Assembly (NCBI GenBank): GCA_045106555.1
Contig: JBGCET010000002.1
Span: 135,752 to 199,751, forward strand
Reading direction: 5' to 3'
Length of the DNA stretch: 64,000 bases
Source of the DNA: Lysobacterales bacterium
GTDB lineage: Bacteria; Pseudomonadota; Gammaproteobacteria; Xanthomonadales; SZUA-38
The stretch's first letter is position 1; each line of letters starts with the position of its first letter. The position numbers and the translations under genes are program-made. Below are positions 4,436-39,690 of this stretch, piece after piece. Under the pieces are notes generated by a model that was not told where the DNA came from, did not search any database, and saw only the letters and a list, made by a program, of their open reading frames with translations.

Positions 4436-5599
4436 GTGGCATTGCAGCAAGTAAAAATCGCGATTGTGGGCGGCGGCATTGGCGGCCTGGCAACGGCCGT
4501 AGCGTTGCATCAGCGAGGACTTACGCCCCACGTGTATGAACAGGCTCAGGCGCTTGGCGAGGTAGGCGCCGGGCTCACCATCAGCGCCAGCGCTACTTTG
4601 GCATTGAACGCCTTGAACCTAGGCGATCAACTCGCTGATCTTGAGCCCTATACGCCCCATTTCGGCGCGCTGGATCCGCAGTCGGGTGCAAGGCGCAGTT
4701 ACGAAGCGCGTGATCTTAAGGCCTATGTTGCCCGCTTTGGTGAGTCCACCCGCCACGTACATCGCGCAGACCTCCATCAGCTGTTGGCCAATGCATTGCC
4801 TGACGGCTGCGTGAGTACCCATCACCGCGTTGAGCGAATCGAAACTACCGAATCGGGTTCGCGACTGGTGTTTGCCGATCAGTCACCCGTCGAAGCAAAT
4901 CTTGTGGTGGCTTGTGACGGCTTGAAATCGGTAATTCGCGAGCAGCAGTTTTCGCCGGCACCAGCCACCTTTACCGGCTTCGTCGCGTGGCGTGGGCTGG
5001 TGGACCGGCAGGCGCTGCCAGATCTTTGTTTAGATCCGCATTTTGCGACCTTTGCCTCTAAAGATCGCTTGTTCGCCCGCTATCCCCTGCGCCGAGGGTC
5101 CCTGATTAACTATGTGGCCATTGCCCGTAAACCGGACTTCACCGCCGAGAGCTGGCACAGCCACGCGGAGATTGACGAGGTACTGGCAGAATTCGCCGGG
5201 TGGCACTCAGACGTTACCCGCCTGATTTCAGCCACGCCTGAGGGTTGCTGCATGAAATGGGCGCTTTACACCCGCCAGCCGCTGCAGCGCTGGGTCACCG
5301 ATCGGGTTTGCCTGCTGGGTGACGCCGCCCATCCCATGACGCCGTTTTACGGTATGGGCGCGGCTATGGCCATTGAGGATGGGCTGGTGTTGGCTCGCTG
5401 TCTGGCTGACAGCGTTGAGGTTGATCAGGCGTTAGCGCGTTTCGAAAAGGCACGGCTGGAACGCGGTAACCAGATGCAGCGGGTTAGCTTGGAGCGGGCC
5501 GAAACCTACATGGGGAAAAACCCTTCCCAGCGCCACAAACCGCCGGCTGCCGGGCTGCAGAACCAGATGGACTACAACCCGGCAACCGTGCCCGTCTAG
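4436..5599 (+). CDS. FAD-dependent aromatic-ring monooxygenase (salicylate/3-hydroxybenzoate hydroxylase-like)
   Basis: Dinucleotide-binding motif KIAIVGGGIGGLATA and FAD fingerprint GDAAHPMTPFYGMGAAMAIEDG. Confidence 0.85.
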   Translation: MALQQVKIAIVGGGIGGLATAVALHQRGLTPHVYEQAQALGEVGAGLTISASATLALNALNLGDQLADLEPYTPHFGALDPQSGARRSYEARDLKAYVARFGESTRHVHRADLHQLLANALPDGCVSTHHRVERIETTESGSRLVFADQSPVEANLVVACDGLKSVIREQQFSPAPATFTGFVAWRGLVDRQALPDLCLDPHFATFASKDRLFARYPLRRGSLINYVAIARKPDFTAESWHSHAEIDEVLAEFAGWHSDVTRLISATPEGCCMKWALYTRQPLQRWVTDRVCLLGDAAHPMTPFYGMGAAMAIEDGLVLARCLADSVEVDQALARFEKARLERGNQMQRVSLERAETYMGKNPSQRHKPPAAGLQNQMDYNPATVPV

Positions 5600-6684
5600 C
5601 CTCGCGGTGTGCCGATGGCCACTGGGCGAATGGGAGAGCCAGAAGCGCCTTTGGAACGCAGTGGCAATATCATTGTGCACGACAGCCAGACCTGATCTTT
5701 GGCCAGTTCGTCCAGCTTCATGTTCTGAATCTGATGAATGCCCGATTGGGTCAGGTTGTGGTGGTGGATGGCAAACGGCAGTCCTGCGGGCGTACCTTCC
5801 GGCGGTGGCGCCTTGCCCGCCAGCGCACCTTCGTTGACTGGGTCGGTGAACGGGTTATCCAACGCTACCAGCACCACCTGGCTTTCTTCAATCATCAGCG
5901 CCGCGTCATAGGACAGCCCGGGGCCTTTGGTGTAGTACTCGTCGGACTCCCAGATATCGCTCCAGCCGGTATAGATGTACAGCACGTCACCAGCCATCAA
6001 GCCTCGCCAGCCCAGACCCTGGGCCTCCAGCATGGCCTTGATGTCGTCAGCGGTAATCAGCTGGCCGGCTTTCAGCGCGTTGCCGCCGCCCAGATGAGCG
6101 CGAGCGTCCAGCAGAACGGCGCTGGTAACAATCGGTGGCACTTGCTCCATACCCAGCTTCAGCAGTGGCGATTGGGGTGTGGGCTTTACCTGCTGCTGGC
6201 TGTAGCCACCGTAGTAGCTGGCGTCGTCAGCCGGAAACGGTGGTGTGCCGTCCCAGGGCTTGCTTAAGTAAGCAAAATGGCCCAACGCGTCCATCTGGGT
6301 GCCCTGGGCGCCGGGTTCTCCAGTGGCAATCTGCTCGCCGTTAAACGCGTGCTGGGTATAAGGAATGCCGACGGTGGGGCGGTATTCATACTGCAAAGGC
6401 GCGCCAAACGGCGACTGTGTCATATCGTTGGCGCGCACATGAGACAGTTCATAGCTGCGAGCATTGGGTGCGCCAAGGTAGTGGCCGCAGCGGGCCCAGG
6501 TGCCGGCGCCAAGGGTGTTGGCCATGCCGCGTTGGTCGCCGTCAGGCCAGGGGCCGGTGTTCACCATCGCGGCAGACTTCTCGGTGACGGACGTTTCAGT
6601 GTTGCCGCCAGTGGAGCTGGCACAGCCGGCGAGCAAGGTCAAAGTGGCAGCGCCGGCTAAGGCCCAATTATTGGATAACTTCAT
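5596..6684 (-). CDS. Cyclase-family (arylformamidase-like) lipoprotein
   Basis: Lipobox LLAGC after a hydrophobic N-terminus. GTQMDALGHF resembles the cyclase-family metal motif. It is the last gene of the SDR-symporter operon. Confidence 0.6.
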   Translation of the reverse strand: MKLSNNWALAGAATLTLLAGCASSTGGNTETSVTEKSAAMVNTGPWPDGDQRGMANTLGAGTWARCGHYLGAPNARSYELSHVRANDMTQSPFGAPLQYEYRPTVGIPYTQHAFNGEQIATGEPGAQGTQMDALGHFAYLSKPWDGTPPFPADDASYYGGYSQQQVKPTPQSPLLKLGMEQVPPIVTSAVLLDARAHLGGGNALKAGQLITADDIKAMLEAQGLGWRGLMAGDVLYIYTGWSDIWESDEYYTKGPGLSYDAALMIEESQVVLVALDNPFTDPVNEGALAGKAPPPEGTPAGLPFAIHHHNLTQSGIHQIQNMKLDELAKDQVWLSCTMILPLRSKGASGSPIRPVAIGTPRG

Positions 6685-6838: not shown

Positions 6839-8277
6839 GCCGCGTCCTCAAAGTATTTATCGATGGCGTGCTGACTGACGGGTTTGGTGAACAGGGCCAC
6901 CGCCGCCATCAGCACCGCCGCCACTCCTAATCCTGCAACTCCGGGGTGCAGGCCTGCCGTCCAGGGTGCCCCTTTGAGCGTGCCGATAATCCATACAACA
7001 CAGGCCAACGTGCCACCAATGGAAGAAGTGAGGGCCGCTTCCCTGCTGAGTTTCTTCGATGTGAGTCCGATCAGCAACGGCAGGAAAAACGCCGAGCCCA
7101 CCAGGGCTATAGCGAATGACACGATGCGCAAGATGAGCGCAATGTCGGGTATCGCAAGGACAAACGCCACGGCCCCCACAACCACAATGGCCAGACGGGA
7201 AATCAACAGATACTGGCGTTCATCGCGCACCACGCCTCGGGGTTCGTCCCAGCAACGACGAACCAGATCATGGGCAATGGCAGACCCGGACATCAGTAGC
7301 AGAGAGTCTGTCGTGGACATGGCGGCGCTGGCGATGCCGGTAAGCGCGACGGCTGCCAGAGCGGGCGTTAACAGCTGGCCGACTAGTACTGGGAAAGCTT
7401 GATCTGGCGAGGCGATCTGGTCCCACACCAAAACCCGGGCAGCCGCGCCAAGATAAAAGTTGCCGTAGAGCAAAAAGACCATCACCAAACCGATGGTGAT
7501 GGGTATCGACATTCTGGCGATGCGGTCATCTCGGGCCGCAAACATTTTGGTCACCAGCTCAATCCGGGTGCTGTACGCCACAAACCAGATGAAATACCAG
7601 CTCAGCATGTAGCTGGTTGACCAGGCAACGCCGGTGGGGGAGGTCCAGCCTGGAGCCACCGCCTCCACCTGCGTGAGCACGGAGTTCCATCCACCGACTG
7701 CTTTGAAAACGAAGGGGACCAAAATCAGCAGGCCGGCCCACATGAAGAGAAACTGTGCGACATTGGTCCACACCACCGCCAGCAGGCCACCCAAGGCCAC
7801 GTAACCCACGAAGATAATGGTGCCAATCACCAAGCACAACATGAAATCCAAGCCCAACAGCTGCTCCAGAATGAACGCCATTCCGCGTAACTGGGCAATC
7901 AAATAGATGATACTGGATACCGCGACTACCAGGGCACTCCAGGCGCGCAGGCCACGGCTGTCAAACCGGTCGCCCATGTAGTCAGGAATGGTAAATCCAC
8001 CGGAACGGCGAAGTTTTTTGGCGAAGACATAAAAGATAATGGCCGCGCCACCAACAAAAGAAATGTACGGAAGGATGGCGACGCCGCCGAATTTGCCAGC
8101 AAAAGCGACCCCACTAAGAATGGCGCCGCCGTGCATGATGGCCGCCATGTTGGCCATAATCATGATCGGTAGCCCGAAGCTGCGCCCGGCTACCCAAAAA
8201 TCGGCACCGGAGGTTTGGCGACGAGATGCCACCAGGCCAATGACCACCACCAGCACAAGGTAGAGGCCAAAAATCAT
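6835..8277 (-). CDS. Sodium:solute symporter (SSS family)
   Basis: 480 aa and polytopic, with SSS-like N-terminal segments (DFWVAGRSFG..., GGFTIPDYMGDRF). Confidence 0.85.
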   Translation of the reverse strand: MIFGLYLVLVVVIGLVASRRQTSGADFWVAGRSFGLPIMIMANMAAIMHGGAILSGVAFAGKFGGVAILPYISFVGGAAIIFYVFAKKLRRSGGFTIPDYMGDRFDSRGLRAWSALVVAVSSIIYLIAQLRGMAFILEQLLGLDFMLCLVIGTIIFVGYVALGGLLAVVWTNVAQFLFMWAGLLILVPFVFKAVGGWNSVLTQVEAVAPGWTSPTGVAWSTSYMLSWYFIWFVAYSTRIELVTKMFAARDDRIARMSIPITIGLVMVFLLYGNFYLGAAARVLVWDQIASPDQAFPVLVGQLLTPALAAVALTGIASAAMSTTDSLLLMSGSAIAHDLVRRCWDEPRGVVRDERQYLLISRLAIVVVGAVAFVLAIPDIALILRIVSFAIALVGSAFFLPLLIGLTSKKLSREAALTSSIGGTLACVVWIIGTLKGAPWTAGLHPGVAGLGVAAVLMAAVALFTKPVSQHAIDKYFEDAA

Positions 8278-8432
8278 CAGACCCAGGGATTGCTGTTCCA
8301 GTGGCTTACCCTCTTTACGTGGTTCTGCAGATTACTTTATCGCTAAAGCATACCGCAAACGCGCCATGAGTTGGTGGTTACCAATCGAATCAGGATACGG
8401 GTTACAAAGGTGAACCAACACAATCCTTTTGG

Positions 8433-9185
8433 TTAGGCCGCCGTCCAGCCGCCGTCCACCCTTAAACTATGTCCGGTCACCATGGCTGATGCATCGCTGG
8501 CCAGATAAAGCGCGGCGGCGGCCACATCATTGGGTTGCCCCACTTTTCCCAAAGGAATCATGCGATTCACGAAAGTCTGAAACTCCGGGTCCGCGAGCAT
8601 GGGCCGGGTTAGCGGTGTTTCGATGAAAGTAGGGGCAACGGCATTGACCCGAATTTTGTGCTCCGCTAACTCAACGGCCATGGCCTTGGTCAGCCCCTCT
8701 ACGGCGTGTTTAGTCATACAGTAAACGCTGCGATTGGGGGATCCGATGTGGCCCATTTGTGACGACATGTTGATGATTGACCCGCCGCCGGAGGTTTTCA
8801 TCATTACCCGGGTGGCTGCTTGGGCAGTTTTAAACATTGCACTGACGTTAAGCGTCATCACATCATCCAGGGTTTCTGCATCAACTTCGACGAAGGGCTG
8901 GGGTCTATTGGTTCCCGCGTTGTTGATAAGAATATCCAGCGACGACATTTGATCTAGTTCCGCGATAAACTCGGGTTGGGTCACATCCTGCAGCCATCCC
9001 TCCACTCGGCCCCGGCTGACAGTATTAATCTCGTCAAGGTCTGACTGGGTGCGAGCGACAGCGCGCACCGAAGCGCCCGCCTGGTCCAGCAGCAAAGCGA
9101 TGGCGCGGCCAATACCTCGGCCAGCGCCAGTAACAACTGCCGTGCGGCCAGACAAATTAAACAGCTGGGTGATTGTGTCGTTCAT
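8433..9185 (-). CDS. SDR-family oxidoreductase
   Basis: Cofactor motif VVTGAGRGIGRAIA, catalytic YCMTK (YxxxK), and NNAG. Confidence 0.9.
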   Translation of the reverse strand: MNDTITQLFNLSGRTAVVTGAGRGIGRAIALLLDQAGASVRAVARTQSDLDEINTVSRGRVEGWLQDVTQPEFIAELDQMSSLDILINNAGTNRPQPFVEVDAETLDDVMTLNVSAMFKTAQAATRVMMKTSGGGSIINMSSQMGHIGSPNRSVYCMTKHAVEGLTKAMAVELAEHKIRVNAVAPTFIETPLTRPMLADPEFQTFVNRMIPLGKVGQPNDVAAAALYLASDASAMVTGHSLRVDGGWTAA

Positions 9186-9455
9186 GATATGGACTGTGTC
9201 TCAGCGATAAGACAGCCTTCACTGTCGCCGATTCGAAGTCAAATTGATGCGGCAAATCGTGGCGAATTATGCATTTTTGGTATGGGAGCTGACATTACAG
9301 GGTCAGTGGACGTGATTTATCCGGTGCATAATGAACGTTCTACGCCTGGGCTGAATTTTTAGGCCGAGGCCGCGTCCAATTTACCCAAGGGTATGACTAA
9401 AAGCGTCGAGCTAATGCAGCCGCCTTCAGCCCTCTTGAGACAGGAACATTTTTTG

Positions 9456-11389: not shown

Positions 11390-11684
11390 CTTCAGTTAAC
11401 ACAATTGCGTAGTGATCACCTTACTACAGCTCGCAGAGTTTGGTCCGTAGTGTCCGAAAAAGCCTGTTTTTTGCCAGCTTGTCCAATATTTATGGCAATT
11501 TTGTCTAATCGCTTTGTCAACTAACTTTAAATAAGGTTAACGAGTGCAAAGCTGAGACACTGGCTCCCCCACTTGCCTCTATAGTAGCCGCTCTTCGCTA
11601 CCCAGATCAGACAACGATCGGCAAAGCGAGCACATAAAGACGGGCCCCACCAATGAGCGGTCCGCTTAGCTACTAGGGGTTACC

Positions 11685-13406
11685 ATGAAAGGATTAGGAA
11701 AGTACGGAGCGATGGCTGTTGGCCTCGGCTTCTTCTTGGTGTTCTTGCTGGCGGTGCTGGCAACCAACATTTGGTTTGCTAACACGCTGGTCGGGGATCT
11801 GGCTGCTGCCATCTCGCTGCTGCCCGCTGCCGATCAGGAGACCAGCCTGCTGGCGCAGAAGCAATTTAAGCTGCTGCAGATTGCCGCATTAATCATGGCG
11901 GTAGTCTACTTCGCCGGCATTATTTTCGCGCTGAGTCGCGACATTCAACGCAGAGACACAGAAGTTGAAGCCGCCAAAGCGGAAACCGACAACATTCTGG
12001 GTACGGTGACTGAGGGCCTTTTCCTGCTCGATAAGGATCTGGAAATCGGCATGCAGCAATCCGGTGCGTTGCGCGATATGTTTGGTGTTAAAGACGACCT
12101 GAACGGCAACTTCTTGGACTTCATCAACCGTTACGTTCCGGAGTCCACCCTGGACATCGCGCGGGACTTCATCGAACTGCTGTTTGGCGATCGAGTGAAG
12201 CAAAAGCTGATTGGTGACCTCAACCCCTTAACCGAAGTGGAAATCAGCATCGAGCGTCGCGATGGCTCGTTTGAAAGCCGCTTCCTTAACTTCCAGTTCC
12301 AGCGCGTATTGGTAGAGAAGAAGGTGTCACAGCTGCTGACCTCGGTAACCGACGTTACCCGCGAAGTGGTGCTGGCCCGTCAGCTGGAAGAAACCAAAGA
12401 GCAATCAGAAGCCCAGCTGGACCTTCTGGTTAGCATTCTCCACCTTGATCCGGCTCAGGTTCGCCGGTTTCTGGTCAACACCGAACACAGCCTGGACACG
12501 GTTAATGGTCTTCTTAAAGAGCAGACCAGTGGCCGGTCGGGAATTACCAACAAGCTGGCAGCCATCTTTAGAGACGCCCACAAGATTAAGGGTGAGGCCG
12601 CAGCATTGGAGATGCACTCCTTTGAGATTCTGGCTCACGAGTTTGAGGACAAGGTGGAAGAACTCCGGCGCAAGTCTGATACCTCAACCAAAGATCTGTT
12701 GACCTTGACGGTTCATCTGAAGGGCCTTTATGAGCACTTGGCTTCGGTACAGGACATGGTTCAACGGTTCTCCAGTCTCAGTGGTTCACACGAGCACACT
12801 CAGTCCGACGAGAACTCCGAGCCAGCGAATCCGTTGGCGCGATTGGGCAATCAGGTTGCTGAGCGCAATGGCGTGGAAGTGCGAGTTTCTCGGGTAGGCC
12901 TTGACGATGAAGAGATTCCTGAGCCCTACCGCGAGCTGGTGAACGATGCCGCAATTCAGCTGGTACGAAACTCCGTAGCCCACGGTATTGAGGGGCCGGC
13001 TCAGCGTCTGCGCCTGGGTAAGCGGGCTGAAGGTCAGGTGGTGGTAAGCGTTAACACCAGCGACGACGGCGAGCTGGTGCTTCAGGTGCGTGACGATGGG
13101 CGCGGGCTAAACATGGAGAAAATTCGCTCAACCGCCATTGAAAAGAAAATGATTACCTTTGAGCAGGCTAATCGACTGAATCACACCCAGGTTCTCGGGC
13201 TTCTGTTCCGACCCGGATTTTCCACTGCTGAGGAAGGCGGTAGAGACGCGGGTCGGGGCGTAGGCTTGGATGTAGTGGGTGCAGGCATGCGTGAGGCCAA
13301 GGGCCGGATCAGCGTGCAGCATCGCCAGGACCAGTTTTGTCAGTTCCGTCTCATTTTCCCGGCAGTCGCAGACTCCGGTGATGTCGCTGAATCAAGGTGG
13401 GGCTGA
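11685..13406 (+). CDS. Membrane-anchored CheA-like histidine kinase (2 TM, PAS-like, Hpt, CheA-type ATPase; no dimerisation or CheW-like domain)
   Basis: Two N-terminal hydrophobic helices. Hpt motif AHKIKGEAAALEMH. CheA-type N/G boxes QLVRNSVAHGIE, RDDGRGL and GRGVGLDVV. The protein ends about 45 aa after the G2 box. GGGG Shine-Dalgarno sequence before ATG 11685. Confidence 0.8.
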   Translation: MKGLGKYGAMAVGLGFFLVFLLAVLATNIWFANTLVGDLAAAISLLPAADQETSLLAQKQFKLLQIAALIMAVVYFAGIIFALSRDIQRRDTEVEAAKAETDNILGTVTEGLFLLDKDLEIGMQQSGALRDMFGVKDDLNGNFLDFINRYVPESTLDIARDFIELLFGDRVKQKLIGDLNPLTEVEISIERRDGSFESRFLNFQFQRVLVEKKVSQLLTSVTDVTREVVLARQLEETKEQSEAQLDLLVSILHLDPAQVRRFLVNTEHSLDTVNGLLKEQTSGRSGITNKLAAIFRDAHKIKGEAAALEMHSFEILAHEFEDKVEELRRKSDTSTKDLLTLTVHLKGLYEHLASVQDMVQRFSSLSGSHEHTQSDENSEPANPLARLGNQVAERNGVEVRVSRVGLDDEEIPEPYRELVNDAAIQLVRNSVAHGIEGPAQRLRLGKRAEGQVVVSVNTSDDGELVLQVRDDGRGLNMEKIRSTAIEKKMITFEQANRLNHTQVLGLLFRPGFSTAEEGGRDAGRGVGLDVVGAGMREAKGRISVQHRQDQFCQFRLIFPAVADSGDVAESRWG

Positions 13407-13786
13407 TGACCACGATGAAAATCATGGTTGTGGATGACTCCAACGTCATCCGCAACAAAATCAAAACCTGTCTGGGTGACACGCCGTTTGAGTTTGTGGG
13501 TGCTGCCACCAATGGTTTGGAGGCGGTTGAGCAGTTCAAGCTACTGAAACCCCACATGATCACGATGGACATCACCATGCCTCATCTTGATGGCATTGAA
13601 ACCATCAAACGGATTATGGCGATTGACGATCAGGTAAGAATTTTGGTGGTGTCGGCCCTGGCTGACAAGGCCACCGCTATCGAGGCCCTGAAACAGGGTG
13701 CCCATGGATTTTTGTGCAAACCGTTCAGTGATTTAGACATGGCTGAAGCGTTAGAAGAGCTGATGGAGGACCTGATCGATGCATGA
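13406..13786 (+). CDS. Single-domain CheY-like response regulator
   Basis: KIMVVDDS, ITMDITMPHLDG, VVSA and CKPF together give a complete receiver signature. The ATG overlaps the kinase stop (TGATG). Confidence 0.9.
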   Translation: MTTMKIMVVDDSNVIRNKIKTCLGDTPFEFVGAATNGLEAVEQFKLLKPHMITMDITMPHLDGIETIKRIMAIDDQVRILVVSALADKATAIEALKQGAHGFLCKPFSDLDMAEALEELMEDLIDA

Positions 13787-14219
13787 GAATGAGCTGCAGG
13801 TATTTATTGATGGTGCGGTGAACTACTTCACTACGGTTACGGACACGGTGGCTGAAGTTGGGTCTCCTTATCTGGTAGATACGCCTAAAAAATTGGAGTT
13901 CACCGGCATCATCGGAATCTCAGGGCGCAAGAAAGGAGTGGTGTATTTCACTGCGCCGCGGCCCATGTTGATTCGCCTGTTGGCCTACATGGGTGAGCAG
14001 GAAATGAACAACGATAACCTGGCGGACATGGTGGGCGAAGTGGCCAACACTCTGTCTGGAAACGCCAGAAAAGAATTTGGCAAAGACTTCATGATCTCGG
14101 TGCCCGTAGTGGTCTCTGGCGACAGCGAGCAAATCAAGGTGCCCAACGGGGTGAAGTCGTACGCAATACCGATCAGCTGGCGCAATCACTGCGCTTTCGT
14201 GGTCATCAGCATTGAATAA
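13779..14219 (+). CDS. CheX-like CheY-P phosphatase
   Basis: 146 aa with the CheX-family pattern (FTGIIGISGRKKGVVYF...MVGEVANTLSGNA...ISVPVVVSG). Overlaps the cheY-like gene by 8 nt. Confidence 0.75.
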   Translation: MHENELQVFIDGAVNYFTTVTDTVAEVGSPYLVDTPKKLEFTGIIGISGRKKGVVYFTAPRPMLIRLLAYMGEQEMNNDNLADMVGEVANTLSGNARKEFGKDFMISVPVVVSGDSEQIKVPNGVKSYAIPISWRNHCAFVVISIE

Positions 14220-14231
14220 TCGGGGAATATC

Positions 14232-15521
14232 ATGAAAAGGAATTTAGCAATAGTCGGCGCTATCGCCGGCTTAGGGTTTGTCGGCACCGCGTCCGCCAAC
14301 GAGGTGGATGCAATCAACGTCACCAATCTCATTTGGATGGGCATCTGCTGTTCACTGGTTTTGCTCATGCAGCCGGGTTTTGCGTTGCTGGAAAGTGGAC
14401 TGTCTCGATCAAAGAACGCCGTCAACGTGATCATGAAAAACTTTGCGGACCTGTGTATCGGTTCGTTAGCGTTTTGGGCCTTTGGTTACGGCCTGATGTT
14501 TGGCGATAATCCCACCGGGTTTTTTGGCATCAGCGATTTCATGGTGCAGCCAGAAAACGGTGAGGTGGCTCTGAACGTTCTGTATCAGATGCTGTTTGCG
14601 GCAACGGCTGCCACCATTGTGAGTGGCGCGGTCGCTGAGCGGATTCGGTTTATCCCCTATGTGATCGGTGCGGCGTTCATTATCGCAGTGATTTATCCGT
14701 TGTTCGGTGCCTGGGCATGGGGTGACGGTGGCTGGCTGCAAAACCTGGGTTTTGTCGACGCTGCGGGAGCCACAGTAGTTCACTCCATCGGTGGTTGGTG
14801 TGCCCTGGGAGCGGTGCTGGCACTGGGCCCAAGACTGGGTCGGTTCAGTCGCAAAGGCAAAGCGCGGGACATTCCTGGGCACAACCTGCCGATGTTTGCT
14901 TTGGGTTCATTCCTGCTATGGGTGGGTTGGTTTGGATTTAACGGTGGTGCTGCGGTGCGGGACTTCTCTAACCTGGGAACCATCTTGCTCAACACGCACT
15001 TGTCGGCAGCAGCAGGCGTGGCATCCGCACTATTTTTCATGCATCTGCTGAAGCAGCCTATTCTTATGACCACCAGCATTAACGGCGCCTTGGGCGGCCT
15101 GGTGGCGGTCACCGCTGGTTGTGCAACGATGACGCCAGGTGCGGCGTTGCTTACTGGCCTGGTGGCTGGTGGCGTAGTTGTATTTGGCACCACCGCATTG
15201 CTCAAGCTGCGTGTGGACGATGTGGTTGGCGCAATACCGGTGCACGGCATGTGTGGTGCCTGGGGAACCTTGGCGGCCGGCATGTTTTATGCCCCGGATA
15301 TGTTCTCTGTATACACCATGGTGGCGCAGATCATTGGCCTGGTAGCGGCATTCGCTTGGGCCTTCCCGCTGTCCTATGGCGTGTTCAAGTTGATTGACGT
15401 CACCCTGGGTCTGCGTGCCAGCACGCAACACGAGCAGCGTGGGATGGACTTCTCAGAGCACTACGAGACGGGCTATGCAGACTTCATCAATGCCGGTACT
15501 ACTCACCAGGCTAAGGCGTAG
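14232..15521 (+). CDS. amt: Ammonium transporter (Amt/AmtB family)
   Basis: Signal peptide followed by the Amt signatures DAAGATVVHSIGGWCALGAVLALGPRLGRF and GAIPVHGMCGAWGTLAAGMF. Acidic C-terminal tail RGMDFSEHYETGY. Starts 12 nt after the cheX-like gene. Confidence 0.92.
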   Translation: MKRNLAIVGAIAGLGFVGTASANEVDAINVTNLIWMGICCSLVLLMQPGFALLESGLSRSKNAVNVIMKNFADLCIGSLAFWAFGYGLMFGDNPTGFFGISDFMVQPENGEVALNVLYQMLFAATAATIVSGAVAERIRFIPYVIGAAFIIAVIYPLFGAWAWGDGGWLQNLGFVDAAGATVVHSIGGWCALGAVLALGPRLGRFSRKGKARDIPGHNLPMFALGSFLLWVGWFGFNGGAAVRDFSNLGTILLNTHLSAAAGVASALFFMHLLKQPILMTTSINGALGGLVAVTAGCATMTPGAALLTGLVAGGVVVFGTTALLKLRVDDVVGAIPVHGMCGAWGTLAAGMFYAPDMFSVYTMVAQIIGLVAAFAWAFPLSYGVFKLIDVTLGLRASTQHEQRGMDFSEHYETGYADFINAGTTHQAKA

Positions 15522-15523
15522 TC

Positions 15524-16240
15524 ATGACCGCTATTACAGCTAGAGCTCAGTCAGAAGAGCGTAATCAAAGGGCGGTGTTTGCCGCCCTGGCTCGAATGAC
15601 CAAAGACCGTACGTTGCTGCTGGAATGCTGGGAGTTTTTTGCCAGCAAGTTTCGCGGAACCCCGGTATTGGCGGTGAACGATTTTGTGGTGGGACTGGCC
15701 AATCATGTTGGCTTGGACTCCAATCAGAAACGTGCGATGACGGTGGCCTTATTTGCTGCCCTCAATCGTGATGTTGCCGAATTGCCGGAACTGCCGGCAA
15801 CGCTGAGGGACATGAAAGCGGATCGGCCTTCGGATGCTGAGAGAGCCACCGCTGCGGCGGAACAGGATGGGTCGTCGGCGTTCAGCCCTTCCCAGACCGT
15901 GTTTCAGGCCTTGCTGGGCGATTTTTGCTATCGCCTGGCGCGGCAAGATCCTGACGCAGCCACAGACCTGGCGGAAATTGTCGCAGAAAGCAGCCTGCCA
16001 ACCACCTTGGATGTCATGACCTACGCCAAGTTTGGCAAGTGGGCTGATGGCGGATTCGACATTGCCGCATGCCCGATTGATGTTCCGGAAGAGCACCTTG
16101 CCGATATTGTGCATCAATTTTACGTCGGTGCCTGTGAGGCGGTAGGCCCCATGGCCGTAGACCGGCTCTTAACCCGGGCGGTAGAAAATGCCAGCAAGCT
16201 TGCCGAGGCAGACCTGTTTCCGCCTGACCGATTGCTGTAG
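15524..16240 (+). CDS. Hypothetical cytoplasmic protein with no recognised domain, coupled to amt
   Basis: ATG lies 2 nt after the amt stop. 238 aa, acidic, predicted helical. Codon usage resembles the neighbouring genes. Confidence 0.6.
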   Translation: MTAITARAQSEERNQRAVFAALARMTKDRTLLLECWEFFASKFRGTPVLAVNDFVVGLANHVGLDSNQKRAMTVALFAALNRDVAELPELPATLRDMKADRPSDAERATAAAEQDGSSAFSPSQTVFQALLGDFCYRLARQDPDAATDLAEIVAESSLPTTLDVMTYAKFGKWADGGFDIAACPIDVPEEHLADIVHQFYVGACEAVGPMAVDRLLTRAVENASKLAEADLFPPDRLL

Positions 16241-16283: not shown

Positions 16284-16309
16284 TAAGGACCGTCAGCAGT
16301 GGGTCCTTA
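16284..16309. terminator. Inverted repeat between convergent operons (TAAGGACC-N10-GGTCCTTA)
   Basis: An 8-bp stem read directly from the sequence. It overlaps the HDOD stop codon. No clear U-tract. Confidence 0.3.
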
Positions 16310-17125
16310 ATCCTGGATTCCCTGAACCATCGCTTCAACGCGTTGGCGCTGTCTCGGCGTCGGCGCTGCTGCCGTGAGATCGGCGGCGATGGTTGATGGT
16401 TCGGTACCTTCGTCCTGGACGGCGATGGCCATGCGAGCGACATCGAGGGCGCAATGCAAGCGAGAGCTTGAGTGCGGCACAGGTTCATAAGCAGCCAATG
16501 TTGCTTCCGGCAATTGCCATGCCTGAGCGACGGCATACGTTACCTGTCGATGATCCATGCCAATGGCGGCCATCAGTAGACGGCCTAAGCTTTGCGGGGT
16601 GTCAGGCTGCGAATCACGTTGGGTCAACACGGCATGGGTCTGTGCCGGCACCAGGTAAGCTAACGCCAGCAGTCCGATGTTATGGCAAAGTCCCGCTTGA
16701 TATGCCAGGGTTCGTTCGTCTTCGGTGGCCTCGGTATCGCCGTCTATCACGCGACGCGTAGCATCAGCCATGAGCAGCGCGTTAATCCAGAACCGCCCGG
16801 TGTCGAAGGACTGGCAGTGAGCGGTATCGAATACGTGGTCGGCAGCCAGGGCTAGTGCCAACGAGCGGACGTTGTCCACACCCAGCACTCGGTTAACCAC
16901 TTCGTCGACACTTCCGACCGGATTACTCAGGCCAAAATAGGCGGAGTTAGCCAGCGCAACCAGCCTCGCGGAAATTCCCGGATCTTGCCCCACCACGGCG
17001 GCCACTTCTTCGCCGGTAACAAACTCGTCGTTAAGCTCGGTCAGAATCTTTTGCGCAACTTCAGGTAATGGGGGGAGTAAGTTCAGGCTTTCTGCCAGGG
17101 TGTGGGCTTTTTGTACAGCGCTCAT
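16307..17125 (-). CDS. HDOD domain signalling protein
   Basis: HDOD pattern LPPLPEVAQKIL...DPGISARLVALANSAYFGL...VLGVDNVRSLALA. The ATG overlaps the stop of the upstream GGDEF-EAL gene. Confidence 0.85.
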   Translation of the reverse strand: MSAVQKAHTLAESLNLLPPLPEVAQKILTELNDEFVTGEEVAAVVGQDPGISARLVALANSAYFGLSNPVGSVDEVVNRVLGVDNVRSLALALAADHVFDTAHCQSFDTGRFWINALLMADATRRVIDGDTEATEDERTLAYQAGLCHNIGLLALAYLVPAQTHAVLTQRDSQPDTPQSLGRLLMAAIGMDHRQVTYAVAQAWQLPEATLAAYEPVPHSSSRLHCALDVARMAIAVQDEGTEPSTIAADLTAAAPTPRQRQRVEAMVQGIQD

Positions 17126-20100
17126 CAGTTCGCTCCTGCAAGTAATGGTTTGTAGCTGTCGGACAACGGTGAAGTGTCAATCTGCGGAAAGTGGGGCATC
17201 AGAAGTTCAGGGCGGTGAATACCAAACCCCTGTCCGAAGTCTGCACCCAGGTCTCGGACCACTGCCAAAATTTCATCATTTTCGACGAACTCAACAATGG
17301 TCTTGATATTCAGAGAGTGGGCAATATCAATAATGGATTTAACGAAAATCTGGTCCGTTCGGTCTTTGACGATGTCACGAATAAACATGCCGTCAATTTT
17401 TAGGTAGTCCACGTTCAGACGTTTCAGATAGCCGAAAGAGGAAAGGCCACTGCCGAAATCGTCCAGTGCCAGCGCACAGCCCATTTCTTTGAGCGCGCAG
17501 ATCAGTTTTGCGGCCTCACTGACGCTCCGGATCACAGCCGTTTCGGTAATCTCAAAATTCACCATGCCCGGGGGCAGTTGAGAGTTCTCCATCAGGCTCA
17601 GCAGAGCCTGGGAAAACTTTGCATCACCCACGCTTGCGCCGGACAGGTTAACCCAATACCGTCGACCTTCGGCGTGGAAAGATTCGTGAACAAACAGGGT
17701 TTTCAGCAAGTTGCTTACCACCCACTCGTCAAGCTTGATGCTCAGCCCGTAGCGTTCGGCTGCGGGCAAAAAAGCACCCGGAGGCACCAGTTTCTGGGAT
17801 TCGATGTCGCGCATCCTTAGCAGCACTTCCATCCGCTCAGGTTCATTGCCAGCGCCATGCAGAGGAACAATTTTCTGCCCGAAGAGAGCGAATCGGTTGT
17901 TGTCCATGGCATCGTGAAGGCGCTGTACCCAGCGCATCTCTCCACGGTGCGCACGGGCCAAGTCTTTTTCCCCCTGTACCAGGTGAACCTGGTTTCTCCC
18001 AGCTTCCTTCGCCGCGTAGCAGGCAGCATCTGCCAACTGTTGTAACTCGTTTACATCGCCGCGTCGGCGGTCGATAGGCACGCAGCCGATACTAACGCCG
18101 ATGCGGAAAACTTGGGACTCCCACGGAAACAGCAGTTCGTCGACAACCTTACGCACCCGCTCCGCCTGATCCAAAACCTCGTCGACGGTGCGGTTGATAG
18201 CCAGGACGCCAAACTCGTCTCCACCCAACCTGCCGACGGAATCTTCGCTACCTACACATCCTTCAATGACGTTCGCCACCTCGCACAAGAGTTGGTCGCC
18301 GGCGGCATGGCCGCAGGTGTCGTTGACGATTTTGAACTGGTCCAGGTCCATGAACATCAGGTAACTTTTTGTTTTCTTAGTCGGCGCCGAGGACCAAACA
18401 TCGTTTAGGCGTTTCTCAAACGAGCGGCGGTTGAGGAGGCCAGTTAGCTCATCAAAATTCGCCTGGTACTCCAGCAGCCGATTGCTTTCCTCAAGGCGCT
18501 GGCGGGCCTCGTCAATTGAGCGCGTGCGTTCGGCAACCTCTTCGCGCAAACGACGATTGACGCTGGCAATTTGCTGAGTTCTCAGCTGAACAACAACAAA
18601 CACCAAAAGCACCGACGTGAGCGCCGCCAGACCCAGGAACCAGGGTCGCTGCCAAATGGGCGGAAGAACGGAAAATGACTGAACAACCGGTTCACTCCAC
18701 GTATTGCCTGACAGCCTGGCGCGCACCTGAAAGGTGTAGTCTCCGGCACCCAGGCTGGAGTATTGCACGCTGCTGATTTCAGTGGCGGTCGAATATCCGG
18801 CGTCCAACCCAGCCAGCATGTAGGAATATTGAACCTTGTAGGGGTCCAGCAATGACACTGCGCGATAGCTGAATGTCAGGCCGCCGTCTTCGGGTATTAC
18901 CGGTTCACCGGCAAGCAGTGCTTCGGGGTCTGATCCAACGTGGGCCTGGATAATGGCAACAGTAAGGTCTGGCGTGGTGGGCACGGGCAATGACGGATTC
19001 ATTTTTGTAGCGCCTGCAACGGTGCCAAGCCACAGGTCGCCACTACGATCGACATACGTTGCGTGGACATTGGATTCAGTGGCGACGAACCCGTTCAGCG
19101 GATAATGACGATAGATGTGCCGATTGGCCAAATTGATTTGATAAAGCCCTTCATCGGCCCCTACCAGCAGGCTGCCGTTTTCCATCGGGTGAATCAGGTA
19201 GACATTCTGACTCGCCAGTGGTGAACCTTCGCCTATGTTTTGCACATTACCCTTGCGATATCGAAATATGCCCCCGCCGCCGGTGCTGACCCAGGCCGTG
19301 CCGGGTTCGGTGACAATAACTTGGCCAATAAACGGATTGATCAGGTCATCGCTGTTGGGCAACCGCTCATGACGCAGTTGGCCTTGGCCGCCCAGGGTGA
19401 TCTGAAAAATGCCCTGGTTGCTTACGCCAGCCCAGATCTCGTTCTCGCCACTCGCGGCAATGGTGTAGATGCTGCCGTTGGCTGGAAAACTGCTGCGCTG
19501 CAGTTCGCCGGAGACAGGGTCTATGCGCAAGACGCCCGAACTCAGTGTGGACATCCACAAAGCGCCGTCAGGGGTCTCGGTCAGGTCCAGCAACTGCAGA
19601 CCCTCGGTGCCGGAAACCCGTTCAATGGACTGAAGATCCGGAGTTATCCGATATAACCCCAGCCCGCGAACCGCAGCCCACACAGCGCCGTCTTGATCGG
19701 ATAATAGGTCTCTGACAGGGCCTTTGGGCAAGTTCAATTGCGCATTCATGACTGTCAATTCGCCCTGATGCATCATCAATAACGAATCATCGGTGCCAAA
19801 CCAATAACGTCCCGCGCGATCCTGGGTGATACTCCACACCAACCGACCATCTCGGGACTCGTTCAGACTGTAGTGGGTGAATCGAAAGCCAAGAAATCGA
19901 ATCAGTCCTTTTGACGACCCCAGCCAGACGACGTCTTCACGATCGACATAAATGGACTGGATGTCGCCGGTGGGAAGTTGTTGAGTTCTTCCTTCCGGGT
20001 CGATCAGCCGGTCACCGTCGATCTGCCAGAATCCGTAGCGACTACCGGGAGATATCAGTTTGGCCTGTCGGGATAGAGGAACTTTTTTGCCGTTACTGAT

Positions 20101-20847
20101 GCCCCCGTACCACCCACTGCCGTCAGTGGTTGCGTAGCCCACCTGGCCGTCCGCCGATTGTCCAATGGTTGTTATGGAAGTATCGGTGGGCTGGAAATCA
20201 AGCGGGGTATCCCGGCGGGCCGTCCAGAGTTCGTTGCCGCTTCTCAGATAAATGGATTTGCGATCCATGATCAGTTGCTCGGTGGTCGTTGGCAGGCCCT
20301 CCAACCGTTGCCAGCGTTGGGCTGTCTGAGTCGGTGTCAGTTGCCACACGCCATTACCCAGCGTTGAGACCAGCGCAGCATTTGGGCTTAGGTTAACGAT
20401 GCCGGTGATCTGAGAGGGCGGGCCGGGCGGGGGATTAATAACCAGCATGACGCGATTATTGTTGACGATGGTGACGCCACCGGTTGAATCACCCGCCCAG
20501 ACGCGATTATCGGGGTCGATGGAAAGCGCGGTTAGGTGATTGCGTCGCATGCCTTGCGCAATCGTGAGGCTGACAAATTTAGTCCCATCGAAGCGGTTGA
20601 GTCCGCGCAGGGTGGTCATCCACAAGTAACCGTTGTGGTCCTGGGCTAGCGCGCTGGCATCAGCTTGGGACATGCCGTCGGCGGTGGAATACACACGAAA
20701 GGGCGGCGTGGGCTCGGCGCTGGCCGCCGCTTCCGTAGAGCTCAAGGTCGTCAGACCGACCCAAAAAATCGTCAGCAAACCTAACCATTCGGGTGCCAGG
20801 CTGCGTCTCGATGGCCGAATGGTTCGAGCCAAAGCCCGAGGCTGCAA
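17125..20847 (-). CDS. Periplasmic beta-propeller/Y_Y_Y sensor fused to GGDEF and EAL domains (c-di-GMP turnover)
   Basis: About 700 aa of repeated propeller blades, then a TM helix and coiled coil. GGDEF (RLGGDEFGVL) and EAL motifs (EITETAVI, LDDFGSGLSSFGYLKRL, DYLKIDGMF). The start is a non-ATG codon and is uncertain. Confidence 0.9.
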   Translation of the reverse strand: MQPRALARTIRPSRRSLAPEWLGLLTIFWVGLTTLSSTEAAASAEPTPPFRVYSTADGMSQADASALAQDHNGYLWMTTLRGLNRFDGTKFVSLTIAQGMRRNHLTALSIDPDNRVWAGDSTGGVTIVNNNRVMLVINPPPGPPSQITGIVNLSPNAALVSTLGNGVWQLTPTQTAQRWQRLEGLPTTTEQLIMDRKSIYLRSGNELWTARRDTPLDFQPTDTSITTIGQSADGQVGYATTDGSGWYGGISNGKKVPLSRQAKLISPGSRYGFWQIDGDRLIDPEGRTQQLPTGDIQSIYVDREDVVWLGSSKGLIRFLGFRFTHYSLNESRDGRLVWSITQDRAGRYWFGTDDSLLMMHQGELTVMNAQLNLPKGPVRDLLSDQDGAVWAAVRGLGLYRITPDLQSIERVSGTEGLQLLDLTETPDGALWMSTLSSGVLRIDPVSGELQRSSFPANGSIYTIAASGENEIWAGVSNQGIFQITLGGQGQLRHERLPNSDDLINPFIGQVIVTEPGTAWVSTGGGGIFRYRKGNVQNIGEGSPLASQNVYLIHPMENGSLLVGADEGLYQINLANRHIYRHYPLNGFVATESNVHATYVDRSGDLWLGTVAGATKMNPSLPVPTTPDLTVAIIQAHVGSDPEALLAGEPVIPEDGGLTFSYRAVSLLDPYKVQYSYMLAGLDAGYSTATEISSVQYSSLGAGDYTFQVRARLSGNTWSEPVVQSFSVLPPIWQRPWFLGLAALTSVLLVFVVVQLRTQQIASVNRRLREEVAERTRSIDEARQRLEESNRLLEYQANFDELTGLLNRRSFEKRLNDVWSSAPTKKTKSYLMFMDLDQFKIVNDTCGHAAGDQLLCEVANVIEGCVGSEDSVGRLGGDEFGVLAINRTVDEVLDQAERVRKVVDELLFPWESQVFRIGVSIGCVPIDRRRGDVNELQQLADAACYAAKEAGRNQVHLVQGEKDLARAHRGEMRWVQRLHDAMDNNRFALFGQKIVPLHGAGNEPERMEVLLRMRDIESQKLVPPGAFLPAAERYGLSIKLDEWVVSNLLKTLFVHESFHAEGRRYWVNLSGASVGDAKFSQALLSLMENSQLPPGMVNFEITETAVIRSVSEAAKLICALKEMGCALALDDFGSGLSSFGYLKRLNVDYLKIDGMFIRDIVKDRTDQIFVKSIIDIAHSLNIKTIVEFVENDEILAVVRDLGADFGQGFGIHRPELLMPHFPQIDTSPLSDSYKPLLAGAN

Positions 20848-21751: not shown

Positions 21752-23428
21752 CTATGGCGTTCCCAGGGAATGGAGCGAGGCGTGAGCATCTAACACTTGA
21801 CGCAGCCGGTTGGCGAGATCGTGCCGGGTATAAGGCTTGCGCAGCAGGGGAATGGTTTCGTTGTTAGCGTTAGGGCCGAAGTAGCCCGAGGTCATCAGGA
21901 CGGCAATGTTGGGATGTTGATCGCGTATCCACCCGGCCAAGTGATATCCGTCAGTATTGCCGGGCATCACCTGATCGGTAAACACGGCGGAAATCGAATC
22001 GTCGGCATCGATCATTCGTTGTGCTTCCCGCGCGTTGGTCGCCAAACTGACCCGGTAACCCAGTGACTGGAGCATTTTCTGGCAGATATTTAAGAGCCCA
22101 GGTTCATCATCAACCGCCAGAACATGTTCATGGCCGACAGCCATGGTGGCAGGCTCGGTTGATAGGGCTGGCTCTTCAGCTGTCGCCCGTGCGATTTTCG
22201 GAAGCGTAATTGAAACGCGGGTTCCTTCACCGGCGCGAGAACTGAGCTGGATTTCACCCCCTGCCGTCTCGACGAAGTTCTGCACCATCGCCAGCCCAAG
22301 TCCCGACCCATTACCAACGTCTTTGGTACTGAAAAATGGCTGCAGAGCTTGCTCAAGAACCGGTTCGGTCATGCCTTCGCCGTTGTCGTGAATATCCACA
22401 TGGATGGCTTCATTGTGGGCCCATCCCGCGCCCGAACAATGCACATGGATGTGGATCTTACCGCCTTGGGGTAGTGCGTCTCTGGCATTGACACACACGT
22501 TCAGAATGGCGCTATCAAATTGGGCAGGGTCGACGCTGGCCACCGCGGCCCGGCTGTCGTCGGACAATGACAGTTCAATGCCCTTCTTGGCGACGGCGCG
22601 CCGAATCAGCGGCAGGCTCTCAGCAATCTGGGTAGCCAGGGGAATGGGTCTGGGGTCCAGCAGGCGTTGTCCTGACATGGTCTGCAGGTTATTGATGAGG
22701 TCTGCTCCGCCCAGAGTTGCCTGGCGAATATCCTGAACCAGTTTTCGCGTTGACGCTTGCTGTTCCAAACTATCTTCCAACAAATCCAGGTTGCCCATGA
22801 TGACCGCCAGTAAATTATTGAAATCATGGGCTACGCTGCCGGTTAGCCTGCCCATCAGATCAAACTGTTGTTTGCGGCTTAACGCTTCGTGGTGGGCTTC
22901 CAGGCGTACCCGAATACCCATGGCCAGTATGGTGATGGCCAGCATGGCCAGTGGCGCTTTGTATAACAGGTCTTTAACAGAGTATTCAGCGCTTAACCGC
23001 GCCGGAACCGGCAGGTCGAAATGGTAGACCAGGGCGATGCCAACCAGCGCTGAAAAACATACCAGGCAATACACCGCGCCGGATTTTCGGCCGGTTAATA
23101 TGACGGCTAACGCAGGGATGAGCAAAGCCCAGATTAGCCCGCCCGATTCCCGCCCGCCAGTATAAAAACCCAACCCCAGGACACACAGCAGCGAGCTTGT
23201 CAGCAACAAGTGTTCGGCATGGCGAATTTTCCCGCCTCTTTTGACATAAATGGGCGTGATGATGCTGGCAACCAGCGGCAGCATTACAAACCACACAAAA
23301 TCGGGTCGCCCGTTCAGGATGCCAACCAGTGAACCCCAGGTGATTACTGCGATGATGGTCAGAGCGCTGAGAAGAAAATACCGGGCGCTTTCTTTGTTGG
23401 TCAGTCGATGACTGCTGTCTCGTCTCAT
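21752..23428 (-). CDS. Hybrid sensor histidine kinase/response regulator
   Basis: Polytopic N-terminus, H-box SVAHDFNNLLAVIMGNL, an ATPase domain, and a C-terminal receiver (HVLAVDDEPGLL, VFTDQVMPG, LRKPY). Confidence 0.85.
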   Translation of the reverse strand: MRRDSSHRLTNKESARYFLLSALTIIAVITWGSLVGILNGRPDFVWFVMLPLVASIITPIYVKRGGKIRHAEHLLLTSSLLCVLGLGFYTGGRESGGLIWALLIPALAVILTGRKSGAVYCLVCFSALVGIALVYHFDLPVPARLSAEYSVKDLLYKAPLAMLAITILAMGIRVRLEAHHEALSRKQQFDLMGRLTGSVAHDFNNLLAVIMGNLDLLEDSLEQQASTRKLVQDIRQATLGGADLINNLQTMSGQRLLDPRPIPLATQIAESLPLIRRAVAKKGIELSLSDDSRAAVASVDPAQFDSAILNVCVNARDALPQGGKIHIHVHCSGAGWAHNEAIHVDIHDNGEGMTEPVLEQALQPFFSTKDVGNGSGLGLAMVQNFVETAGGEIQLSSRAGEGTRVSITLPKIARATAEEPALSTEPATMAVGHEHVLAVDDEPGLLNICQKMLQSLGYRVSLATNAREAQRMIDADDSISAVFTDQVMPGNTDGYHLAGWIRDQHPNIAVLMTSGYFGPNANNETIPLLRKPYTRHDLANRLRQVLDAHASLHSLGTP

Positions 23429-38210: not shown

Positions 38211-38221
38211 ACGAGGTGGAG

Positions 38222-39687: not shown

Positions 39688-39690
39688 ACA

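Follow-up and report, generated by a model that had tools for sequence, protein, structure and literature searches.

We analysed a stretch of 64,000 nucleotides (hereafter the window; contig JBGCET010000002.1 of assembly GCA_045106555.1, positions 135,752 to 199,751 of the forward strand) from a Lysobacterales bacterium, which carries a gene for a protein of 573 amino acids (aa) whose catalytic region is like that of the chemotaxis kinase CheA. With a probability of roughly 0.8, we consider this protein to be a class-III-type sensor histidine kinase, heading a self-contained CheA-CheY-CheX-like signalling module that is independent of receptor arrays. The genes follow one another in the order kinase, CheY-like receiver, CheX phosphatase, Amt ammonium channel and a protein of 238 aa (Table 1). 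An earlier interpretation, made from the sequence alone (the sequence-only reading), had described the kinase as a CheA stripped to its Hpt and ATPase domains and re-anchored in the membrane, and had overlooked the cheY-like and cheX genes directly downstream of it.

The open reading frame (ORF) is real, and the motifs quoted for it earlier were all located in the protein (HKIKGE at residues 299-304, LVRNSVAHGIE at 426-436, DDGRGL at 470-475 and GRGVGLDVV at 523-531). In Pfam, Hpt was matched at residues 261-352 (30.0 bits, cutoff 24.6) and HATPase_c at residues 423-560 (44.6 bits, cutoff 26.4), while H-kinase_dim, CheW and HisKA gave no match in the kinase even at E<=1, which is what the sequence-only reading had expected of a scan with hidden Markov models (HMMs). 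The NCBIfam CheA models cover residues 386-560 only, corresponding to CheA positions ~354-537, that is, to the P4 domain. Sequence searches of the PDB matched CheA P4 at E values of 1e-25 to 1e-27 with the kinase alone and of about 1e-44 to 1e-51 with a family profile of 97 sequences. Within the Thermotoga maritima CheA chain that comprises P3, P4 and P5 (1b3q_A, 379 aa), the profile matched chain residues 71-246 (P4) alone; P3 and P5 of 1b3q and P3 of 4xiv were unaligned in this search. Class I kinases showed similarity confined to the G2 region (E values of 1e-3 to 1e-7). The likeness of the catalytic region to CheA P4, first judged by eye, is borne out by these NCBIfam and PDB searches and by Foldseek, in which the modelled P4 superposed on isolated CheA P4 crystal chains with a root-mean-square deviation (rmsd) of 2.1-3.8 Å over ~176 columns (target-normalised TM-score 0.75-0.84), at 28-34% identity. 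The P1-like Hpt domain with its phospho-His in HKIKGE proved equally sound: besides the Pfam match, the family profile aligned this region with the CheA P1 structures 1tqg (1.3e-9), 2ld6 (1.9e-9) and 1i5n (3.4e-7), and His299 is invariant. The invariant catalytic positions in the 97 aligned homologues are H299, K302, G303, N429, H433, D470xGxG and G523xGxG. In the same profile search, the best match outside CheA for the Hpt region (query residues ~256-350) was 6ff6 'BRIC1', with an E value of 5e-15 in two matched stretches, and this entry outscores CheA P1.

The kinase was modelled with AlphaFold2 as a monomer, using the alignment of 97 homologues (mean predicted local distance difference test score, pLDDT, 88.7; predicted template-modelling score, pTM, 0.67). 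At the N-terminus of the model, long helices at residues 8-43 and 48-107 enclose the hydrophobic TM segments 8-26 and 66-84. They are followed by an alpha/beta domain at 111-223 with the element order of a PAS domain (two strands, four helices, three strands), by the four Hpt helices (256-278, 284-307 with His299, 311-329 and 335-369), by an unstructured stretch at 370-382 and by the P4 fold at 383-560, after which only a 13-residue tail remains. Residues 371-380 of the linker have a pLDDT of about 54.

Table 1. Features of the kinase and of its operon in the window (+, forward strand; TM, transmembrane; nt, nucleotides)
Feature	Position	Strand	Description
Sensor histidine kinase, class-III-type	11685..13406	+	573 aa; TM hairpin, PAS-fold domain, Hpt, CheA-type ATPase
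TM helix 1	11706..11762	+	residues 8-26; Kyte-Doolittle 19-residue window, score 2.52; within model helix 8-43
External helical hairpin	11763..11879	+	residues 27-65, about 39; vestige of a PilJ-type periplasmic sensor domain lost by deletion
TM helix 2	11880..11936	+	residues 66-84; runs on as a cytoplasmic helix to residue 107
Cytoplasmic PAS-fold domain	12006..12356	+	residues ~108-224; most conserved part of the family; ends in TDVT 222-225 (D-x-T motif)
Linker helix, PAS to Hpt	12357..12440	+	residues 225-252; helix in the model; L230 and L234 invariant (97 sequences)
Hpt (CheA-P1-like) four-helix bundle	12450..12791	+	residues 256-369; phospho-acceptor His299 in HKIKGE, helix 2
Flexible 13-residue linker, site of P2 and P3 in CheA	12792..12830	+	residues 370-382; without secondary structure; unconserved among homologues
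CheA-P4-type catalytic (ATP-binding) domain	12831..13364	+	residues 383-560; N box N429, G1 D470xGxG, F box, G2 G523xGxG
CheY-like single-domain response regulator	13406..13786	+	126 aa; Pfam Response_reg 94.6 bits; closest NCBIfam models CheB N-terminus and CheY
CheX-family CheY-P phosphatase	13779..14219	+	Pfam CheX 76.7 bits; D-x3-E-x2-N as DMVGEVAN, residues 83-90; overlaps receiver end
Amt-family ammonium channel	14232..15521	+	429 aa; 12 nt past CheX; Ammonium_transp 379 bits; TIGR00836 above cutoff
Conserved 238-aa protein, final operon gene	15524..16240	+	2 nt past Amt; all-alpha; no family match

This anatomy leaves no place for the two CheA domains that serve dimerisation and array docking. 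The gap between Hpt and P4 is indeed short, but the earlier figure of about 25 residues does not stand (13 in the model, about 32 by HMM boundaries). The P3 hairpin consists of two helices of about 26-28 residues (Berry et al., 2023); with a linker of 13 residues before P4 and a tail of 13 residues after it, there is therefore space for neither a P3 hairpin nor a P5 domain. That the protein has no P3 dimerisation bundle is accordingly upheld by Pfam, NCBIfam, the PDB profile search and the AlphaFold2 model, and that it has no P5/CheW-like domain follows from its end 13 residues past P4 and from the lack of any CheW match. A cryptic P3 or P5, the finding that would have told against the sequence-only reading, was detected by none of the three profile searches (Pfam, NCBIfam, PDB).

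The N-terminal part was confirmed as a membrane and sensor module. There are two TM helices, as had been described, but the loop between them is not 'very short', since it comprises about 39 residues. The PAS-like segment quoted earlier (ILGTVTEGLFLLDKDLEIG) corresponds to residues 104-122, and the suspicion of a PAS domain was right, the model showing a domain of PAS topology at 111-223. Its invariant positions among the 97 sequences, a dozen in number, include I104, T107, G111, F113, L114, G122, S126, L175, F205 and R207, together with D223 of the closing motif TDVT. No PAS family was among the 25 most frequent Pfam matches of 65 family members scanned, and none recognises the PAS-fold domain of the kinase; the conserved cytoplasmic domain therefore lies outside current Pfam PAS models. 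TDVT is similar to the D-I-T motif at the entry to the coiled-coil linker in kinases of the FixL/YF1 type. The helix between PAS and Hpt (225-252) is, on the model, a candidate signalling or dimerising helix, and there are hints from this analogy that the PAS domain and the linker helices could supply dimerisation.

The kinase is translationally coupled to the CheY-like receiver and CheX. Its stop codon TGA (13404-13406) overlaps the ATG of the receiver gene at 13406, and an alternative start of the latter, GTG, lies at 13397. The receiver keeps the acid pocket (DD), the phospho-Asp in TMDITMP and the conserved S, F and K. Gene order was compared in 80 genome loci and five annotated loci (85 in all, with flanks of +/-8-10 kb), and the order kinase, receiver, CheX is kept in every related locus with enough flanking DNA; in Noviherbaspirillum and Janthinobacterium this triad stands by itself amid housekeeping genes. 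The claim that no cheW or MCP (methyl-accepting chemotaxis protein) gene is nearby turned out to be true of the whole window: no CheW or MCPsignal domain was found in the window scan, which covered 47 of the 49 greedy-called ORFs of >=90 aa, nor in the five annotated homologous loci. Translated searches (tblastn) with hand-typed MCP, CheW and PilT probes, run with no positive control, returned nothing in the 1.24 Mb of the 85 loci. Pilus or flagellar genes were likewise absent from the window, as were pil genes from the loci within their flanks.

The Amt protein retains the motifs VDAAGATVVH, PVHG and GMDFSEH, so that the conserved Asp, the twin pore histidines and the C-terminal GlnK-binding-type motif are all intact; because of this, it looks like a working transporter. 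For the 238-aa protein, no Pfam or NCBIfam match was obtained, and no Foldseek match in the PDB was better than E=2. It has 4 close homologues, its AlphaFold2 model is all helical (pLDDT 77), and its orthologues detected by tblastn (22-29% identity) come after Amt in the loci of Arenicella.

Homologues of the kinase with the same architecture and their genomic context were collected, as the sequence-only reading had proposed, and the collection revealed both a shared architecture and the conserved triad described above. Homologues numbered at least 491 in a word-indexed search at E<=1e-5; the database also has an identical protein under the label 'ATP-binding protein, MAG: Lysobacterales bacterium'. 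With residues 95-375 (PAS-fold plus Hpt) as the query, chosen to leave out ordinary CheAs, 1629 clusters (50% identity) were obtained in an exhaustive HMMER search at E<=1e-3, of which 548 reached E<=1e-30. When 65 members were scanned singly with Pfam, Hpt was found in 65/65, HATPase_c in 64/65 and PilJ (PF13675) in 17/65, and H-kinase_dim, CheW and HisKA were not among the 25 most frequent families of these members. Two signature peptides of the PAS region, derived from an alignment of 11 sequences, were found in 136 of 185,579 species genomes, from Arenicella, Steroidobacteraceae, Cellvibrionaceae, Reinekea, Lysobacterales, Noviherbaspirillum and other taxa. By these searches, the family is apparently confined narrowly to Gamma- and Betaproteobacteria. 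The presence of Hpt and HATPase_c in nearly all 65 members, the hundreds of clusters and the 136 genomes indicate that the architecture is a family trait and not an accident. One locus, from an uncultured gammaproteobacterium (L020), has two paralogous family kinases (4514-6019 and 7932-9413).

The architecture is not new in kind, since it matches that of the class III histidine kinases (HKIII), which were described in 2017. They reportedly combine sensory domains with a CheA-like kinase domain and an Hpt-type phospho-acceptor and have no dimerisation or CheW domain. They are said to be partnered by a single-domain response regulator and CheX, and many of them also by an unorthodox soluble chemoreceptor. 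They reportedly occur in genomes without chemotaxis genes, in which pilT is always present, so that a role in type IV pilus motility is said to have been proposed; their distribution is said to be narrow, mainly in Gamma- and Betaproteobacteria. To our knowledge, the class has been described by computation only, and we know of no experimental characterisation. The window kinase has the CheA-like catalytic domain, the Hpt acceptor, its own sensory domains and the receiver and CheX neighbours, with no dimerisation domain, and the taxa of its family (Lysobacterales, Steroidobacteraceae, Janthinobacterium, Noviherbaspirillum) are compatible with that distribution. The sequence-only reading had named membership of an already characterised kinase family as a refutation, and this applies in part: the architecture matches HKIII, a computationally described class. 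Compared with HKIII, the window kinase is without a periplasmic sensor domain, a hairpin of 39 aa being left, and it shares an operon with Amt and the 238-aa protein and has no adjacent soluble chemoreceptor gene. An article citing the description of the class states that such kinases are found in genomes without chemotaxis genes, and that they occur together with a marker of type IV pili.

In the mechanism that we propose, P4 would bind ATP and phosphorylate His299 of the Hpt domain, within the same chain or, if the protein is dimeric, in the partner chain, following the chemistry of CheA. By analogy with CheA and CheY, the phosphoryl group would then pass from His299 to the Asp of the co-translated receiver, which CheX would quickly dephosphorylate, allowing fast turnover as in chemotaxis without MCPs, CheW, P3 or P5. 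Since the kinase has neither P3 nor P5 and possesses its own anchor and PAS-fold domain, it should not dock to CheW and MCPs, and its input should come through its own N-terminal module, as the sequence-only reading had also concluded; its domain anatomy supports that conclusion. Signals received by the TM/PAS module would be transmitted by the helix at 225-252 and would alter the presentation of Hpt to P4. Dimerisation, if any, would involve the TM helices, the PAS domain and the linker helix led by D-x-T, as in PAS-linked class I kinases, and not a P3 bundle. In the window lineage, an ancestral PilJ/NarX-type sensor has been lost by deletion, and the module is joined in one operon with Amt and the 238-aa protein.

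Several points weigh against this reading of the kinase and its module. The equation of this family with HKIII is provisional. The adjacent soluble chemoreceptor that is reported for HKIII was absent: no MCPsignal domain occurs in the window or the five annotated loci, and a hand-typed probe, run without a positive control, gave no tblastn match in the 85 loci; such a receptor reportedly occurs 'in many instances' of HKIII, so it is not obligatory. Autophosphorylation, phosphotransfer and the action of CheX are inferred from homology. The structure was modelled as a monomer only, and the dimerisation that the protein may undergo is a proposal. For the output of the receiver, the window offers no pilus or flagellar genes. 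HMMER often misses P3 in true CheAs (Berry et al., 2023); for this reason the structure outweighs the HMM result as an argument, and the predicted absence of P3 is supported mainly by the model and the 13-residue linker. Finally, the family profile extends over ~40 residues of Escherichia coli CheA upstream of P4, onto 18 profile positions, which looks like linker slippage and was not seen with T. maritima CheA.

The short external loop is peculiar to some members of the family. The number of residues between the TM helices is 161-206 in most relatives, 96-125 in the Arenicella lineage and 36-39 in the window lineage (the window, L001, L002 and P0003-P0005). In the 17 PilJ-bearing members among the 65 scanned, this stretch forms a four-helix sensor of the PilJ/NarX type that contains an AGRQRML box. 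When aligned with these homologues, the window kinase keeps the membrane-flanking stubs alone, and the PilJ domain including the box is gone. Judged from this alignment, the short loop does not represent the ancestral design but arose in this lineage when a PilJ/NarX-type periplasmic sensor was deleted. In 23/23 loci in which Amt follows CheX, the kinase loop is short (36-125 aa), and no long-loop locus has Amt, the loci without Amt all having loops of 161-206 aa where the length was computable. These Amt genes (L001-L012, L014-L021 and L082) are co-operonic in the window and Arenicella lineages only, and in nearly all of these loci the 238-aa protein comes after Amt. The comparison of loci thus places the apparent deletion of the sensor together with the acquisition of the Amt gene. 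Kinase identity is 39-46% between the window lineage and Arenicella but 33-39% for the remaining relatives; the two lineages are therefore probably sisters, and the correlation between short loops and Amt likely reflects one ancestral event. That the order of five genes is kept over such a distance (39-46% identity) argues for a functional linkage. In Agaribacterium haliotis (L084, 3203-10935), a PilJ-type member with receiver and CheX lies directly downstream of napEDABC, which encodes periplasmic nitrate reductase; this position is a hint that PilJ-bearing members sense nitrate or nitrite. In locus L085 (10842-12734), the CheX gene of a member with a short N-terminus (P0072, 656 aa) is followed not by Amt but by a gene for a 630-aa protein with a TonB_C domain, which is a second membrane-transport-related gene attached to the triad.

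An extension of the class III reading, rather than a replacement of it, is that the kinase, after losing its sensor, uses the co-operonic Amt as an ammonium co-sensor, possibly via the 238-aa protein, and turns ammonium flux into levels of CheY-P. The association of all 23 Amt loci with loops of 36-125 aa, against 161-206 aa in Amt-less loci, speaks for it, as do the removal of exactly the PilJ domain with its AGRQRML box, the five-gene order retained between the two lineages, the tight spacing of the operon genes (overlapping or 2-12 nt apart) and a nitrogen theme in the family (PilJ/NarX-type sensors and the triad right after napEDABC). Yet the correlation, being probably a single ancestral event in two sister lineages, amounts to one observation; Amt looks like an ordinary transporter with twin His and C-terminal motif intact; no physical coupling would be needed for the linkage if the genes are simply co-transcribed when nitrogen is limiting; and the coupling itself is hypothetical, with a 238-aa protein of no recognisable fold as its possible link. 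We therefore regard transporter-coupled sensing as a tentative and rather doubtful proposal. The same low expectation attaches to the wider picture in which a class III kinase lost a nitrate-type sensor and was hard-wired to Amt and a new all-alpha protein, giving an array-free circuit from ammonium flux through a CheA-type kinase to CheY/CheX.

It is very improbable that the kinase contributes P1 and P4 to a split CheA whose P3 and P5 reside on another polypeptide, with array function kept, as in CheA3/CheA4 of Rhodobacter sphaeroides. Bipartite CheAs do exist (Berry et al., 2023), and our search of this genome for the missing half covered the 64-kb window. Against this, no ORF for P3/P5 or CheW lies in the window or beside any homologue examined, the kinase has its own membrane anchor and sensor domains, and the triad stands alone amid housekeeping genes in Noviherbaspirillum and Janthinobacterium. 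Moreover, HKIII genes reportedly occur in genomes without any chemotaxis genes, as the citing article mentioned above also states.

Just as little weight can be given to a class I kinase or phosphorelay protein with a divergent HisKA/DHp dimer, in which the 'Hpt' would be spurious. Full-length Foldseek alignments of about 480 columns with the PAS-DHp-CA kinases 4gcz, 4i5s, 8a6x and 4r3a could be read in this way, and the Pfam score for Hpt is modest (30 bits). These global alignments, however, have an rmsd of about 20-26 Å and TM-scores of 0.17-0.21. The family profile matches CheA P1 at 1e-9 and no DHp region, Hpt is found in 65/65 members, and in the model a four-helix bundle forms within one chain and bears the H-x2-K-G motif on its helix 2; the ATPase is CheA-type, its CheA matches surpassing those to class I kinases by some 20 orders of magnitude or more. 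Least credible of all, and effectively refuted, is the notion of a truncated or frameshifted canonical cheA or of a mis-assembly, which the origin of the sequence from a metagenome-assembled genome might suggest, given that the same architecture and length class recur in hundreds of independent clusters and 136 species genomes, that the catalytic residues are invariant, that the downstream gene overlaps the kinase stop codon and that relatives of 83-91% identity share the kinase boundaries.

The class III-type kinase can be placed among known systems as follows. Like CheA (class II, as in E. coli and T. maritima), it has a P1-type Hpt domain with the phospho-His on helix 2 and a P4 domain, and it is paired with a CheY-type substrate and a CheX-type phosphatase. 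Unlike CheA, it is without P2, P3 and P5, it has TM helices and a PAS-fold sensor, which are never found in CheA, and it has no MCP, CheW, CheR or CheB partners. Hpt, P3, P4 and CheW domains are present in all of 13,673 CheAs, and CheA is defined as HATPase_c plus CheW (Berry, Andrianova and Zhulin, 2023); because it has no CheW domain, the kinase is not a CheA by this definition. With the PAS-linked class I kinases of the FixL/YF1 type, it shares the order sensor, PAS, helix led by D-x-T, His-bearing bundle and ATPase, but its His is on a monomeric four-helix Hpt bundle instead of a two-helix DHp, and its ATPase is CheA-type. EL346, a monomeric LOV kinase, is an earlier example of a kinase that functions in the absence of a dimeric DHp. 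The PilJ four-helix domain and AGRQRML-type box borne by some members recall NarX/NarQ and PilJ-type sensors; the window kinase has lost them, and downstream of the membrane the family kinases are unrelated to the HAMP-HisKA_3 design of NarX. In having a short external loop and a genetically linked transporter, the window kinase is like the transporter-dependent, intramembrane-sensing systems BceS-BceAB and DcuS-DctA. Intramembrane-sensing kinases use BceAB, and DcuS uses DctA, as co-sensors. Amt proteins fused to signalling domains act as ammonium sensors (Ks-Amt5, Sd-Amt1); unlike these, the window Amt and kinase are separate proteins, and the Amt is ordinary-looking. Among the relatives compared, the deletion of the sensor and the linkage to Amt look particular to the window lineage. 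Three literature leads (Pseudomonas syringae two-component systems, McvR of Xanthomonas and MiST 4.0) were found to concern subjects other than this kinase family.

CheA is held to need four core domains. The present family shows that the pair of P1 and P4, placed behind an ordinary membrane/PAS sensor, is enough for driving a CheY/CheX module, and it offers a minimal test-bed for the array-free control of a CheA-type ATPase and for the need for dimerisation. The compact member described here (573 aa, no periplasmic domain) suits biochemistry and structural work. Its linkage to Amt provides a testable candidate signal, ammonium, for a class without assigned inputs or outputs and, if the proposed coupling is true, the circuit would link nutrient transport to motility or surface behaviour in a minimal way, through a single operon.

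Some further observations concern the surroundings of the operon. Promoter and terminator scans gave sites no more numerous than in shuffled sequence. Upstream of the kinase, CTGGCTCCCCCACTTGCC at 11559-11576 (+) resembles a sigma-54 -24/-12 element in which the spacing from GG to GC is one base too long; the sigma-54 pattern is not enriched in the window. Genes for an HDOD protein and a 1240-aa Reg_prop/Y_Y_Y-GGDEF-EAL protein (16307-20847, -) converge on the operon from the opposite strand. They were considered as parts of the system and rejected, being probably outside it because no relative but the closest (L002) conserves them.

Elsewhere in the window, other signalling proteins are encoded, namely a MASE6-HisKA-HATPase-REC hybrid kinase (21752-23428, -), an unorthodox kinase with the order HisKA-HATPase-REC-Hpt (44791-47532, -) and a Ser/Thr kinase with TPR repeats (61370-63700, +). 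Two proteins of the CpeT/CpcT family (DUF1001, phycobilin-lyase-type) are encoded at 33764-34477 (+) and 35441-36487 (-) in this non-cyanobacterial, gammaproteobacterial genome; the pair encloses an FGE-sulfatase-like gene (34470-35390) and adjoins a flavin amine oxidase gene (36507-37964). The region 38216-43263 (+) encodes a TetR regulator, an ABC ATPase and then a 1190-aa protein in which an ABC-2 membrane domain is fused to a Peptidase_M1 domain.

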